A stretch of 64,000 nt of DNA from an uncultured Gammaproteobacteria bacterium (GTDB lineage Bacteria > Patescibacteriota > Microgenomatia > UBA8517): contig CAZOVJ010000002.1 in assembly GCA_964583685.1 (NCBI GenBank), positions 277,862 to 341,861 on the forward strand, written 5' to 3'. This document shows, in pieces, positions 31,408 through 64,000 of this stretch (its first letter is position 1; every line of letters begins with the position of its first letter). The notes under the pieces are model-generated. The model made no database searches. It was given only the letters and a program-made list of their open reading frames with translations, and was not told the origin of the DNA. The translations under genes and the position numbers were made by a program.

Positions 31408-31480
31408 GCACCCGTAGCTCAGTGGTTAGAGCGCGTGTCTTATAAACACGAGGTCCTTGGTTCGATACCAAGCGGGTGCA
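31408..31480 (+). tRNA. tRNA-Ile (anticodon TAT / UAU)
   Basis: Manual cloverleaf: acceptor GCACCCG/CGGGTGC, D-arm GCTC...GAGC, anticodon stem CGTGT/ACACG with loop CTTATAA (anticodon TAT), T-arm GGTCC-TTGGTTC-GATACC... The fold checks out; no CCA encoded. Confidence 0.8.
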
Positions 31481-32916: not shown

Positions 32917-32989
32917 TGCGGGGTAGTGTAGGGTTGCACGGGAGGCTCATAATCTCCCAGACTAGGTTCGACTCCTAGCCCCGCAACCA
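32917..32989 (+). tRNA. tRNA with CAT anticodon (elongator Met or Ile2/lysidine type), CCA encoded
   Basis: Manual fold: acceptor TGCGGGG/CCCCGCA, U8, anticodon stem GGAGG/TCTCC with loop CTCATAA, T-arm CTAGG-TTCGACT-CCTAG, discriminator A plus CCA. It lacks the three G-C pairs of initiator tRNAs. Confidence 0.7.
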
Positions 32990-33061
32990 GCTAGGGTAGC
33001 TCAGGGGCAGAGCAATCGTTTCATAAGCGATAGGTCGTGGGTTCGAATCCCACTCCTAGCA
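32990..33061 (+). tRNA. second tRNA with CAT anticodon, directly abutting the first
   Basis: Acceptor GCTAGGG/TCCTAGC (G7-U66 wobble), D-arm GCTC-AGGGGCA-GAGC, anticodon stem ATCGT/GCGAT with loop TTCATAA, T-arm GTGGG-TTCGAAT-CCCAC. No CCA encoded. Confidence 0.7.
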
Positions 33062-59424: not shown

Positions 59425-62289
59425 ATGAAATATCCAAAAGGTTCTGAATGGCGAAAGTGGGATCTACATATTCACAGCCCGCTTTCAATCCTAGCCAATA
59501 AATACCCTAAACTGCCAGACGGCAAGCCAGATTGGGAAAAATTCTTAAAAAGCCTTGAAGAGTTGGACATTGCAGTTGTTGGTATAACCGATTACTTCTC
59601 AATAGAAGGATATAAAAAAATCTTAGATTTCAAAAAGGCTGGTAGGTTAAAGAATATCGATCTTATTCTGCCCAATATCGAGTTTAGGTTAAACTGTGTC
59701 ATTGCAAGTAAAAAGGATGGAGCTAAACCAAGACGATTAAATTATCATGTGATCTTCTCGAATGAGGTGTCACCTCAGGACATCGAAGAACACTTTCTGC
59801 ATGACCTTCATTTTTACTATGAGGGCAATCCCCAAAGCAAAGATGAAAGTCGTAAGTTAAAACTTTCCAATTTGAAGGTATTAGGAAATCAACTTATATC
59901 TCAACATGCTCCTTTCAAAGGAAGAGACCCGTTGGAGTTAGGCGCATCAAATGCTGTTGTAAGCCATGAAGAAATAACGGAATTGTTGAGTGGGGATAGT
60001 CGCTTCAAAGGAAAATATCTCCTTGTCCTTCCAGAGGAACTAACAAACTTGATTGACTGGGATGGTCAAGACCATCTTATTCGGAAAGGGCTTCTCCAAA
60101 AATCAGATATGCTGTTTTCCTCTAATCCCAAAACTGTCCAATGGTGTCTTGGGAAACCGCCCTACATGGAAGGAGAGAGAAAATTCAAAAAGGAGTTTAA
60201 GACCTTGAAATCCTGTATCCACGGATCGGATAGCCACTGTATTGATGATGTTGGGATTCCATGTGCCAAAAGGGGTGACCCCAGTCATAAGTGCGACGGA
60301 AAGCCAAATACCTGCGATTTAAGATTCTGTTGGATAAAAGCTGACCCGACCTTTGAGGGACTAAAACAACTTTTGTATGAACCAGAGGAGAGAGTCTCAA
60401 TCCAAACTAATTGCCCAATACCTCCCAGAAGTAATTTAACGATTGTCAAAGTTAAAATTCCAGAGTCGAAAATCAACGATGAGCTGTCCATTGCTAACAC
60501 AGAAATAGAACTTAACCCAGGCTTGGTTGCCGTAGCAGGAGGTAAAGGAACTGGCAAAACCGCCTTCGTTGACCAGATTGCTAACTGTTACTTTAATCGA
60601 GTGGATTCTGGCGATGAGAATTCCTTTGTGAGGAGAATTTCAGATCAGAATCCTGACTTAAAAATCGAATTAACTTTCAAGGATAAATCAACTTTTTCAA
60701 AAAAAGCCACAGACCTATTACTTTTTGAAGAGGGGCAAATTGCTTATATCGCTCAGGGAGAACTAGAACAGTATATTGGAGAAAGGTCGGATCTTGACGA
60801 ATATCTTAATGACTTAATCTTCCAAAGTCCGAAAATACAAAATTCAGTAGAAAAATACGAATTTTCAAAGACTCAAACATCAATAGACGATCTCAGACAA
60901 AAAATTCAGAAGAAGTCAGAATCGATTGAGTTAATAGAGCAAGCAACTAAAACAGAAGCCATTGAAAAGGCAAAAATTAAAGAAAAACAGTCCAAAGCAG
61001 AATTGGAAGATATAACCCAAAGAATCACAGAGCTTGAAAAGAGGCTTAGTGATAAAAAGGTCAAGCTCGCAAAGAAAAAACAAAAAGCAATAGCGAGATT
61101 AAAAAACAGAAGAGACTTGTTTATTAAATTAAAAAAGGAATTAACGCAGGCAATCGACTTCATTGATCAAGAATTTCCAAACTTTAACTCTTACATCTCC
61201 TCTATCAACAAACTGCTCAAAAAGTTAGAAATTCCAGAACCATTTCCCGATTTAGCGTATCCTGACAAGGATAAGTTGCAAGAAAAATTAGATTATATTG
61301 AGCAGGAAATAAACGAGGTAATTAAAAAGATCGGGAAAGCCCAAAAGGACATCGATAAGTTTGAAGCAGGCATACGAACCCACACATCAATGCTTGATAA
61401 AAAGAGAGAGGCTAAAATCACTCTAAATCAAGCTAAGGAGGAAAATAAAAAATTAAAGAAGAAGAAAAAAGAGCTTGCGTCTAAAAGCAAAGAAAGGAAA
61501 AAGTTATTTACCCAGATGGTTACTGCCTTCCTTGAACTGAAGAAAAAGTATGACGAGATTATCTCGCTATTTTCTGTAGACAAGGCACAAGTTCTATCTG
61601 ATCTCGATTTCGTCGCAGAGGTTAATTTTGATTCAAAACAACTACTCAAAAACGCAGAGGACATTGTTGACAACAGGAGAGTTACAGTCAGACCAGAAGA
61701 TGGCGATGACTGGGTATTCAAGGGCTTAGTCGGACTTTATAAGGAAGTTGCAGCTGGCGACGAAACCAAAATTAAAACTTTAACTGACGAGATAGAGCGT
61801 TTGAATAAGGACTTGAAGGATAAGATAAAAACTTCAAGCGCTATAAGTATTGGCGATTTTTATAAATTCCTATACGGCAGCTACCTGGAAGTCATCCCTG
61901 TTGTCAAATACAAGAATACCAGCGTCAATAAGCTCTCGCTGGGGCAAAAAGCGACAGTCCTTATCAAGATTTATTTAGCTGAGGGGGACAAACCTATTAT
62001 CATCGACTCGCATGACGACCATCTTGATAATGAATTCATCATGGACGAGCTTATTTGTTCTATAAGAGAAGCTAAAAAGTATCGACAGATTATCTTAGTA
62101 TCCAATAACGGCAATGTTGTTATAAATAGTGATGCAGAACAGGTCATTTTGGCAAACAGGGACAGCAATGGAAAAATCTCGTATATCTCTGGTTCAATAG
62201 AAGAGCCAAAGATTAGAAATAGAGCGGTTAAGGTATTAGAGGGCGGATCAGAAGCATTTAGGAAACGGCAACAAAAATACAGAATATGA
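59425..62289 (+). CDS. PHP-domain phosphoesterase fused to a Rad50/SbcC-like coiled-coil ABC ATPase (candidate defence/DNA-surveillance protein)
   Basis: PHP motifs WDLHIHS (59461-59478), GITDYF and HGSDSH (approx. 60220-60240); Walker A GGKGTGKT (60538-60561); a ~320-aa Lys/Glu-rich heptad coiled coil; ABC signature LSLGQKA (61933-61953); Walker B/D-loop PIIIDSHDDHLD (61993-62028). 954 aa. Confidence 0.6.
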   Translation: MKYPKGSEWRKWDLHIHSPLSILANKYPKLPDGKPDWEKFLKSLEELDIAVVGITDYFSIEGYKKILDFKKAGRLKNIDLILPNIEFRLNCVIASKKDGAKPRRLNYHVIFSNEVSPQDIEEHFLHDLHFYYEGNPQSKDESRKLKLSNLKVLGNQLISQHAPFKGRDPLELGASNAVVSHEEITELLSGDSRFKGKYLLVLPEELTNLIDWDGQDHLIRKGLLQKSDMLFSSNPKTVQWCLGKPPYMEGERKFKKEFKTLKSCIHGSDSHCIDDVGIPCAKRGDPSHKCDGKPNTCDLRFCWIKADPTFEGLKQLLYEPEERVSIQTNCPIPPRSNLTIVKVKIPESKINDELSIANTEIELNPGLVAVAGGKGTGKTAFVDQIANCYFNRVDSGDENSFVRRISDQNPDLKIELTFKDKSTFSKKATDLLLFEEGQIAYIAQGELEQYIGERSDLDEYLNDLIFQSPKIQNSVEKYEFSKTQTSIDDLRQKIQKKSESIELIEQATKTEAIEKAKIKEKQSKAELEDITQRITELEKRLSDKKVKLAKKKQKAIARLKNRRDLFIKLKKELTQAIDFIDQEFPNFNSYISSINKLLKKLEIPEPFPDLAYPDKDKLQEKLDYIEQEINEVIKKIGKAQKDIDKFEAGIRTHTSMLDKKREAKITLNQAKEENKKLKKKKKELASKSKERKKLFTQMVTAFLELKKKYDEIISLFSVDKAQVLSDLDFVAEVNFDSKQLLKNAEDIVDNRRVTVRPEDGDDWVFKGLVGLYKEVAAGDETKIKTLTDEIERLNKDLKDKIKTSSAISIGDFYKFLYGSYLEVIPVVKYKNTSVNKLSLGQKATVLIKIYLAEGDKPIIIDSHDDHLDNEFIMDELICSIREAKKYRQIILVSNNGNVVINSDAEQVILANRDSNGKISYISGSIEEPKIRNRAVKVLEGGSEAFRKRQQKYRI

Positions 62290-62432: not shown

Positions 62433-63029
62433 TTATTTCACCTGGGCAAACTCTCTTCCATCAGGAGTAACACACTTTCTTGGTTCACCAGTTCTTTGAG
62501 AATACTGCTCTGATGAGAGCTGCCCTCTGGCTTCAACACAATCCTCATATGTTTCTACCCATTTGAATCTGTCATTTATTGAAGGGGCAAGATCGCCTCC
62601 AGGAAGAAGTTCTGGGTAGAACATGCCTGGGCAACCATGACTGCAATCATCAAACTTGCCTTCGTTCAGTAAAACTTCAGCCAACTCCCAAGCACTCATT
62701 GTTTGAGAAATCTCATAAGTAGTTTGAGTATTGATGGTGTTGTTGCTAATGCTAATTGCTCCCTCTTGCCCAGGGGTGGCATCTTCGGCATGCCCCAGGG
62801 CATATTTGAAGGCATCCTCGTCTTTGATAAAGCCATAGTAGCGAAGATTGCTGACAACACCCATTAAAGTAGCTTCTTTGCCGATGCGGAATTGAACCAC
62901 TTGGGCATTTTGTCTTGGTGCTTCAAACTTGCTTTGACGAGACTTGGTGAAATAAACGGCAATGCTTGCCAGCAAGACAAGAGCAACAACAATTAGTGGG
63001 ATAGTTGGTAGTTTTTTCTTCATGTTCAT
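62433..63029 (-). CDS. hypothetical secreted/membrane-anchored Cys-containing protein
   Basis: N-terminal signal/TM (LPTIPLIVVALVLLASIAVYF), a CSHGCPG motif, and a strong SD AAAGGAGGTGA upstream; 198 aa. Confidence 0.4.
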   Translation of the reverse strand: MNMKKKLPTIPLIVVALVLLASIAVYFTKSRQSKFEAPRQNAQVVQFRIGKEATLMGVVSNLRYYGFIKDEDAFKYALGHAEDATPGQEGAISISNNTINTQTTYEISQTMSAWELAEVLLNEGKFDDCSHGCPGMFYPELLPGGDLAPSINDRFKWVETYEDCVEARGQLSSEQYSQRTGEPRKCVTPDGREFAQVK

Positions 63030-63100
63030 TTTAATTTTTCACCTCCTTTCGTTAAGAATTAGCCTTAACTTACTAGAGGTTTCGGATGTTAACTTCCTTT

Positions 63101-63225
63101 GGGGGAGATTGTCAAATCCAGGGAAAACAAAAAGCTCCCCACAGCGATGGGCTTACGCCCACCTGCCACCCTTTCGGATGACAGCCTCGACGGCGCTCTG
63201 TGAAGAGCTTATTGCCGTCGAGGTC
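63101..63225 (-). ncRNA. candidate structured cis-regulatory RNA in the 5' leader of the 62433..63029 gene (unclassified)
   Basis: A GC-rich block in an AT-rich intergenic region. On the minus strand it folds as a 10-bp stem (63185-94/63214-23) enclosing an inner hairpin, a 9-bp hairpin with a GAAA tetraloop (63163-84; needs G-U pairs, so only stable on the minus strand), a GGGC-GUAA-GCCC hairpin (63148-59), and a GGGGAG/CUCCCC long-range pair (63102-07/63135-40). Confidence 0.35.
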
Positions 63226-63386
63226 TTCAATGCCATGCCCTAAAAGGGTTTAGGCAATATGCTTGTATTTTATCAATTTAACAATTTTCTTGCCATACCC
63301 CTTAGTTTTGGCTTAAAGACATCATATTTGATAAAATTATCATTAGAAGGCACTTTAGGTGGTGCAATTAAATTACCCGATATTAC

Positions 63387-64000
63387 AATGAGCGTATCGA
63401 ACATAATCCAGCAGGTTATCGAAATCACCAATCAGAAATTGGAAATCTCCCCAAAAAGAGACAAGTTTATTTCTATTTCTTTGTGGGATTTTAGAAATGA
63501 AAAGGGGAACACGATACCAAAAACCGATCTAAAGAAGGTTTTGAGAAAACTAGAGGAAGAGCAGTTAATTAAGTTGATCTTTACTGACCATTTAGACAGG
63601 TTGGGACGACAAGCTGGAGACAAGGTTGAATTTCAAATAAACAGAAACGCCTTCGATAAGTTTTATAGAAAAAACAGAAACCCACAACTTACCTCAAAGG
63701 TATCTCAAACAGCTAAAAATGGAGAAGTGTTCTATGAGGTTTTTTATAGTGAGATGTCCAGAGAGATTGTAGTCAACGGTTTCCAACTGGCAAAACCAGA
63801 TTTCGAGTCAGAAAATGAGCAATTCTTTGCTTATGCGTATAAAAACGCCTACAGAAGAATACCTATTAAAGAAATTGAAGAGAATTATAAGACAAAGTTC
63901 AAAAAGTCTCCACATAGAATCCTGGCTGATTTGGGTTTTACAGGTAGTTTTGCAAAAGCCTTCTTTAGTATATCGAGAAAGGGAGTTTTGTTTAGAAAGA
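63387..64000 (+). CDS. hypothetical protein (partial; continues beyond the window end)
   Basis: Open frame from ATG 63387 to the window end (>200 aa, MSVSNIIQQVIEITNQKLEISPKRDKF...). It is not in the ORF track because there is no stop within the window. AT-rich like the core genome. Confidence 0.4.

Follow-up and report, generated by a model that had tools for sequence, protein, structure and literature searches.

The window analysed here is a stretch of 64,000 nucleotides (nt) from contig CAZOVJ010000002.1. One of its intergenic gaps, 358 base pairs (bp) long, is bounded by a gene on the minus strand (62433..63029) and by a divergent gene that begins at 63388 on the plus strand, and it holds a block with a GC content of 0.57, compared with about 0.40 for the window. 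An initial annotation had described this GC-rich block (63101-63225) and proposed that, rather than being ordinary promoter DNA, it encodes a functional, strand-specific RNA with GNRA loops, lying in the leader of a secreted-protein gene and matching no known class. The block is real, and we identified it as a LOOT RNA (RF03000), about 130 nt long and encoded on the minus strand from about 63256-63260 to about 63124. Comparative results extend the structure of this family and point to a testable role as a terminator or attenuator.

The identity was settled by the scan against Rfam that the initial annotation had itself proposed, and the statement that no known class could be matched is overturned. 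In the scan of the whole window, RF03000 matches 63146..63256 on the minus strand with 75.1 bits (gathering score 46.4, E 2.6e-12), and the match spans model positions 1-121 of 121 and is not truncated. At the gathering threshold there are four matches in the window in total, LOOT and three transfer RNAs (tRNAs). Our own model, R1, gives 101.2 bits over 63119..63256. The Rfam match is not an artefact, because 115 homologs covary. The RNA body comprises the following features:

63146..63256, minus strand: LOOT RNA core as in Rfam (P1, P1a, P2, P2a, P3 and P4), from the RF03000 match
63231..63256, minus strand: P1/P1a hairpin, UGCC UAAA CCCU-UUU-AGGG CAU GGCA, with UGCC paired to GGCA and CCCU to AGGG
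63185..63223, minus strand: P2 domain, a 10-bp stem of CCUCGACGGC (63223-63214) and GCCGUCGAGG (63194-63185) that encloses a 19-nt apical region
63195..63208, minus strand: P2a hairpin, GCUCU-UCAC-AGAGC, 5 bp and -4.5 kcal/mol in the predicted fold
63164..63183, minus strand: P3 hairpin of 8 bp with a GAAA tetraloop (63175-63172), restricted to the minus strand by two G.U pairs
63146..63163, minus strand: P4 hairpin, GGUGGGC-GUAA-GCCCAUC, with a GNRA loop, found by Rfam and in the fold

Most of the helices drawn in the initial annotation are recovered in this structure, namely the 10-bp stem with its inner GCUCU/AGAGC hairpin (P2 and P2a), the GAAA-capped hairpin that exists on the minus strand alone (P3) and the GGGC-GUAA-GCCC hairpin (P4). 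Its start at 63225 was wrong, as the true start is 63256 and P1 had been missed. P1 carries the internal loop CCUAAAC/GCAUGG, which comprises the most conserved nucleotides of the family (CCUAA..C and GCAUGG are in upper case in the Rfam consensus). The window copy retains all of the consensus-conserved positions, CCUAA..C at 63253-63248, GCAUGG at 63238-63233 and the GAAA loop of P3.

Homologs were collected with a strict pattern (GCCTAAACC..GGCATGG..CCGAAAGG) run against a single genome of each species, which gave at least 119 loci; all family counts below (110-118 loci) are drawn from the pattern matches listed. The pattern fixes the P1 loop, GGCAUGG and CCGAAAGG, so that their invariance in this set holds by construction and the sample is biased. 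Downstream and upstream genes were called with a simple heuristic open reading frame (ORF) caller of our own. Two genome matches (L090 and L106) are not LOOT, and neither are any of the seven pattern matches in viral contigs. Tandem arrays or multiple copies were also rejected, as each 8-kb locus contains one match, except for a half copy in L042.

In a model-based alignment of the homologs, P1, outer P2, P3 and P4 are 87-97% paired with compensatory changes. The outer pairs of P2 are 96% paired and show compensatory changes, P3 is 96.9% paired with such changes at six of its eight pairs, and P4 is 87% paired with changes at all four core pairs. Inner P2 aligns poorly (53-60% paired), and P2 lengths vary among homologs. 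Taken over the whole structure, 77-81% of cells are paired, versus 64-65% in shuffles (0 of 500 reach the observed value) and 39-51% when the partners are slid. The fold is also strand specific: the predicted fold of the minus strand reaches -74.7 kcal/mol (z -5.16 versus shuffles), the z score of the plus strand is -3.68, and the plus-strand fold lacks the GAAA hairpin P3. A mechanically called ORF for 93 amino acids on the plus strand (62962..63243) overlaps the RNA.

These results bear on whether the block could instead belong to a known riboswitch or housekeeping class, or consist of chance GC-rich hairpins in promoter DNA. The sole support for a glycine riboswitch or signal recognition particle (SRP) RNA was the visual impression of CCGAAAGGGUGGCAG recorded in the initial annotation. 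In a sensitive Rfam scan of 62900..63450 at E<=10 neither class gives a match; besides LOOT, there is one chance match to a small nucleolar RNA (E 3.5, compared with 2.6e-12 for LOOT). The covariation in 115 homologs excludes chance hairpins. Thus, these readings are almost certainly wrong, and models of sequence and structure, as far as they go, already refute them.

LOOT stems from the survey of Weinberg et al. 2017 (PMC5737381), where it is described in the supplement. It has since been shown as a 'metagenomic-based RNA' in the Rfam 14 paper (PMC7779021), was assigned about 43 bp, six helices and many cross-covariations in the CaCoFold paper (PMC7657543), and gained two covarying pairs in Rfam 15 (PMC11701678). 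Our literature search, which did not extend to the 2017 supplement, found no paper that assigns LOOT a function. The window copy shares with the family the full model, the six modelled helices, the conserved nucleotides and a source in uncultured bacteria; it departs from the family in nothing that defines it, although its P1a and P2a fall short of the consensus length and some positions in the P2/P2a region are flagged as non-canonical in the alignment. It adds one member to a catalogued family of unknown function, and for the window itself the result is modest. Four features reach beyond the 121-position Rfam model, and these are a pseudoknot between the P2 loop and the 3' tail, a U-run, a second complement further downstream and co-orientation with the downstream genes.

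The final base of P4 is also the end of the Rfam model, and the pseudoknot helix therefore lies outside that model. The sequence that follows P4 is conserved (CGCUGGCGGGGAGC-like) and runs into the U-run, and this tail is complementary to apical P2. The corresponding features of the window are:

63134..63144, minus strand: 3' strand (X') of the pseudoknot, CUGUGGGGAGC, which forms 11 bp with the 5' strand (X), GCUCUUCACAG, at 63208-63198
63124..63133, minus strand: U-run, UUUUUGUUUU, directly after the pseudoknot 3' strand and terminator-like

The X:X' duplex of the window has a predicted energy of -17.9 to -20.7 kcal/mol. Among the homologs, cognate loop-tail duplexes average -22.0 kcal/mol, compared with -13.5 kcal/mol for non-cognate duplexes in which tails were swapped between homologs (0 of 300 permutations reach the cognate mean). 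In a structure-blind MAFFT alignment (A3, 115 sequences), compensatory changes occur at all nine core pairs and 86% of the cells are paired. In a second alignment (A4), fitted to model R1, which had been built without the pseudoknot, seven core pairs are 93.9% paired, as good as the 96.9% of P3; one of these pairs, for example, is CG in 50 sequences, UA in 39 and UG in four. LOOT has a covarying pseudoknot that is additional to the Rfam model.

The pseudoknot competes with the inner hairpin of P2. P2a and the pseudoknot are mutually exclusive because 63208-63198 serve both, and they are alternative pairings. In 113 of 117 homologs, X shares positions with the stem of a local hairpin predicted in the apical region. 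In the register seen in the window, P2a has no covariation support across the alignment and was rejected as a conserved helix, although local hairpins exist in other registers. The long-range GGGGAG/CUCCCC helix of the initial annotation fared similarly: the complementarity is real, but it is the weaker alternative, as GGGGAG (63140-63135) belongs to the covarying pseudoknot. CUCCCC, for its part, is conserved in close relatives inside a promoter-like block and without compensatory changes, and the pair was rejected as a structural helix.

The U-run that abuts the pseudoknot is a family trait, with at least six T in the 9 nt behind the 3' strand at 105 of 118 loci, against a background of 25%. 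A terminator scan of the window flags GAGCTTTTTG. A GC-rich helix, here the covarying pseudoknot, that directly abuts a U-tract is the hallmark of an intrinsic terminator, and the U-run is probably the 3' end of the RNA or a point of attenuation.

Many loci contain, downstream of the U-run, a second segment complementary to the tail (X''). Family-wide, cognate tail and downstream segments pair with a mean of -13.55 kcal/mol, versus -11.31 kcal/mol when permuted (0 of 300 permutations reach the cognate value). In the window X'' is CUCCCC at 63107-63102, and its pairing with the tail is predicted at -12.9 kcal/mol. When RNAs of read-through length are folded without regard to the pseudoknot, the tail pairs with X'' and the U-run becomes a hairpin loop.

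A promoter would lie just upstream of the RNA. The transcription signal is:

63267..63275, minus strand: extended -10-like element TGaTAAAAT, 10 nt upstream of P1 (ATGGCA-18-TAAAAT with a TG extension)

The relatives L016, L020, L062, L074 and L119 keep this element, with TGATACAAT at the same place, and the loci as a whole show an enrichment of -10-like hexamers at 12-22 nt upstream of P1. Because of this conservation and enrichment, the RNA probably starts within a few nt of P1.

Taken together, these features suggest that LOOT is a cis-acting leader or attenuator whose pseudoknot and U-tract terminate or attenuate transcription ahead of accessory genes, a reading that we regard as about evenly poised between right and wrong. 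Under this scheme, the RNA would be made from its own promoter just upstream and its body would fold compactly, with the GAAA loop of P3 probably docked into a receptor-like P1 loop. X and X' would then pair and displace P2a, and the resulting helix and the U-tract would act as an intrinsic terminator, ending or attenuating transcription just ahead of the co-oriented accessory gene. In read-through transcripts the tail would pair instead with X'' (CUCCCC in the window). Such a module, which heads very mixed genes across Patescibacteria, could respond to some signal, or could simply set the level of their expression.

The docking step rests on a resemblance. The canonical 11-nt receptor of GAAA tetraloops is CCUAAG/UAUGG (PMC2615604, PMC11381326), and the P1 loop of LOOT (CCUAAAC/GCAUGG) shares with it the CC:GG pairs, the U and A of the UA handle, the positions of the AA platform and the bulged U. 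CCUAAA/CAUGG matches nine of the 11 positions, and where the canonical receptor has a G.U wobble LOOT has A.C. The GAAA loop of P3, conserved in the same RNA, is the obvious partner that would dock into the P1 loop. A metagenome scan for LOOT variants with a G.U or G-C receptor gave four matches, none of them LOOT and all below 10 bits, so that the receptor idea draws no support from covariation.

The scans also returned non-LOOT RNAs that combine the same hairpin (GCCUAAACC-GAAA-GGCAUGGC), or a canonical GCCUAAGCC..GGUAUGG, with a following CCGAAAGG hairpin. They lie on viral contigs (L122:11361-11436, L125:5753-5828 and L126:3350-3424) and on the metagenome contigs L128-L131. The viral ones that were scanned match no Rfam family at the gathering score. 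All of these non-LOOT RNAs may be structured RNAs that have escaped annotation and rely on the same tetraloop-receptor pair.

Downstream of the U-run, the window contains two further features:

63086..63115, minus strand: promoter-like block TTGACA-N18-TAACAT with CUCCCC in its spacer (promoter scan, 10 of 12 matches)
62433..63029, minus strand: downstream gene of 198 amino acids with an N-terminal membrane anchor and a Shine-Dalgarno sequence, GGAGGU, at about 63046-63041

The promoter-like block is followed by a 5' untranslated region that contains a hairpin, then by the normal Shine-Dalgarno sequence and the gene. The block GATTTGACAATCTCCCCCAAGCGAAGTTAACAT is conserved after LOOT, together with its spacer, in L012, L014, L016, L020, L033, L034, L060, L062, L067, L074, L093 and L119, all of the Microgenomates type. 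That the spacer is conserved as well hints at a protein-binding site, beyond a mere promoter. No Pfam family matches the 198-amino-acid protein, which has a weak N-terminal similarity to MltG below the cut-off. Homologs of the gene follow LOOT in close relatives, one metagenome-assembled genome carries two modules of LOOT and a homologous gene in differing upstream contexts (L060 and L067), and the gene of the window is also present on a metagenome run contig. LOOT and the gene behave as one unit, although the latter seems to be served by a promoter of its own. With a promoter-like block and a Shine-Dalgarno sequence behind the U-run, it need not depend on read-through.

Here the main and a serious rival must be weighed, in which LOOT is a free-standing, trans-acting small RNA (sRNA) that pairs with other RNAs, binds protein or has a structural or catalytic role, with its own promoter and a pseudoknot/U-tract terminator, and in which the downstream gene is independent. 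Rfam types the family as 'Gene; sRNA', and further support comes from the TTGACA-18-TAACAT block and normal Shine-Dalgarno sequence that the window and its relatives carry behind the U-run, and from the U-run itself, kept at 105 of 118 loci. The fold, with its tetraloop, receptor-like loop and pseudoknot, also looks tertiary and is more elaborate than most attenuators need. On the other hand, a second tail complement behind the U-run makes sense only if transcription continues, and at 111 of 115 loci the next gene is co-oriented with LOOT (binomial p 3e-28; 92 of 112 in a cruder and stricter first pass), whereas roughly 50% would be expected of an unrelated sRNA gene. The median distance between the U-run and the start codon is 42 nt. 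The separate promoter-like block of the window locally favours a free-standing sRNA, and the co-orientation and downstream complements of the family favour a cis role. We consider the sRNA possible, though doubtful. For the same reasons, the placement of the RNA in the leader of a secreted-protein gene, as the initial annotation had it, is in keeping with the co-oriented genes of the family but sits less well with the second promoter-like block and Shine-Dalgarno sequence of the window and with the sRNA type given by Rfam.

The genes that follow LOOT are functionally diverse. The 110 downstream proteins represent 69 Pfam families, none of which occurs in more than four, and include zinc ribbons, DNA methylases, type I and MmeI restriction parts, NOV_C, DUF2726, T5orf172, SNase, YceG, trypsin-like proteases and bacterial PH domains. 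This lack of relation among downstream genes fits a free-standing sRNA. It also makes a classical metabolite riboswitch unlikely, because the downstream genes share no function. Upstream on the same strand are small excisionase-like HTH_17/MerR genes (9 of 41), which end 15-24 nt before LOOT in L012, L021, L033, L034, L060, L093, L105 and others. Upstream divergent genes include large serine recombinases (9 of 69), as well as ParB-methylases, OLD-like and AbiEii-like ATPases, STAND NTPases and a small terminase. The setting is one of mobile elements and defence islands.

A setting of this kind suggests another cis-acting role, in which LOOT would head mobile-element operons as an agent of processive antitermination, or as a block to 5'-to-3' decay that stabilises the message. 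The RNAs put and EAR are processive antitermination RNAs of phages and operons, and by this analogy LOOT, too, would be a cis RNA just after a promoter, in a mobile-element context and upstream of a terminator. LOOT is promoter-proximal, its surroundings are prophage- or mobile-element-like (divergent large serine recombinases, excisionase-like HTH_17), and the terminator-like site immediately downstream would need read-through. However, LOOT shares no sequence or structure with put or EAR and has no Rfam match other than its own, and the terminator-like stem is the conserved pseudoknot of the element itself and not a separate downstream hairpin. We therefore consider this role distinctly unlikely.

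At 24 of 115 loci, the linker and 5' strand of P2 recur as a near-exact direct repeat of 10-18 nt about 110 nt downstream, ending 0-6 nt before the next start codon (e.g. L021:5935-6125, L115, L105, L027, L059, L035 and L049). The signal is bimodal, being present in 18-22% of loci compared with 0.7-4% of non-cognate pairs. In the loci that bear the repeat, the P2 3' strand could sequester the ribosome-binding site. That about 20% of loci have this copy exactly at the ribosome-binding position of the next gene is a further point against a free-standing sRNA. The copy is missing from the window (-7.5 kcal/mol) and confined to about 20% of loci, and it was rejected as a general mechanism. L042 contains, in addition to its full LOOT (L042:4061-4203), a 3'-half copy 2.6 kb downstream (L042:6701-6835, plus strand) that retains everything from the P2 3' strand through P3, P4, the tail and the U-run to X''. 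Nothing recognisable is left of its 5' half, and a gene again follows.

Both observations, the direct repeats and the half copy, could be read as footprints of insertion if LOOT were a site acting at the DNA level, either a recombination or attachment site or a cassette boundary, and serine recombinases and an integrase are among its frequent neighbours. The repeats are, however, missing from about 80% of loci, the window included, and no half copy other than that of L042 was found in the loci. The pairing relies on many G.U wobbles, the GNRA loops and receptor-like loop are RNA tertiary motifs, and helices that covary while the sequence drifts bear the mark of an RNA rather than of a core site bound by protein. 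Because the pairing is strand specific and covarying, LOOT is very unlikely to be a recombination site at the DNA level.

We return to the cis-acting leader or attenuator as the preferred reading, against which several points count. The strands of the proposed terminator stem are about 60 nt apart, across two hairpins, which is unusual, and the U-run contains conserved G's (UUUGUGUU) that are not expected of a plain terminator. In the window and close relatives, a promoter-like block and a Shine-Dalgarno sequence stand between the U-run and the gene. The functionally unrelated downstream genes do not allow a ligand to be guessed, Rfam types LOOT as an sRNA, and the transcription start, the termination event and the resulting 3' end are all predictions.

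The gene downstream of LOOT is convergent with a gene on the plus strand (59425..62289) for a 954-amino-acid TrlF-family AAA-like ATPase (NF045780, 508 bits versus a cut-off of 350), whose C-terminal part is related to the anti-phage protein Ppl. The divergent gene (63388 to 64000, plus strand; about 228 amino acids, MSVSN...) runs off the window and continues at L127:521-1204 (minus strand). Searches of Pfam, NCBIfam, PADLOC and PHROGs place its protein in no family. On L127, the longer contig, it is followed by a gene for a small DUF5659-like protein, and DUF5659 is also found upstream of LOOT in three other loci. The three tRNA genes of the window are on the plus strand at 31408-31480, 32917-32986 and 32990-33061, the last two being 3 nt apart.

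The homologs lie overwhelmingly in metagenome-assembled genomes of Patescibacteria. Among the matches listed, 49 of 80 titles carry explicit names of Patescibacteria, or candidate phyla radiation (CPR), including Saccharibacteria, Microgenomates, Paceibacterota, Woese-, Uhr-, Doudna-, Davies- and Curtissbacteria; 12 say only 'bacterium', and the remainder include 'uncultured Gammaproteobacteria' and 'Bathyarchaeia'. The odd labels comprise L060, L067 and L073 (Bathyarchaeia/Bathyarchaeota), L022 (Pacearchaeota), and L003, L025, L027, L030, L037, L045 and others (Gammaproteobacteria). These labels are probably wrong, or the bins contaminated, because the LOOT regions are near-identical to those of Woesebacteria and other Patescibacteria. 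One 'Gammaproteobacteria' record is a complete chromosome of 886 kb with two LOOT copies.

LOOT is one of many orphan structured RNAs without an assigned function. The radiation of the Patescibacteria is vast and for the most part uncultured; its members have tiny genomes, and very few of their regulators are known. Should LOOT prove to be a widespread, promoter-proximal pseudoknot-terminator that precedes accessory genes (for restriction-modification, nucleases, membrane proteins and others) in the vicinity of recombinases, Patescibacteria would have a first recognisable system of cis-regulatory RNA with ties to mobile DNA. A bolder proposal, which we put forward as rather unlikely but not negligible, is that LOOT represents a new class of cis switch of Patescibacteria mobile elements and defence islands. 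Here the pseudoknot of a receptor-braced fold would be the terminator stem, and the 3' flank would supply second partners (X'' at most loci, the P2 5'-strand copy at about 20%), so that the same fold could be made with upstream or downstream strands. In this way a ligand, protein or host cue might gate transcription and, in a subset, translation of freshly acquired genes. The extended model, with pseudoknot, U-run and X'', supplies concrete mutations with which to test these ideas.

LOOT can also be compared with two other kinds of known system. Terminating riboswitches and attenuator leaders are, like LOOT, promoter-proximal and co-oriented with the next gene, and they too combine mutually exclusive pairings (in LOOT P2a, the pseudoknot and tail:X'') with a U-tract after a GC-rich helix. 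Some of them, such as the c-di-GMP-I/GEMM and ZTP riboswitches, use a GNRA tetraloop-receptor contact and/or a pseudoknot. Unlike these leaders, LOOT would have the aptamer-like pseudoknot itself as its terminator stem, has no coherent regulon or candidate ligand and, in the window, is followed by a separate promoter-like block behind the U-run. Intrinsic (Rho-independent) terminators differ in that the stem strands of LOOT are about 60 nt apart, forming a pseudoknot across P2, P3 and P4, and that conserved G's interrupt its U-run. With these terminators LOOT shares a GC-rich 3' strand, GGGGAGC, that abuts a U-run, an arrangement kept at 105 of 118 loci.

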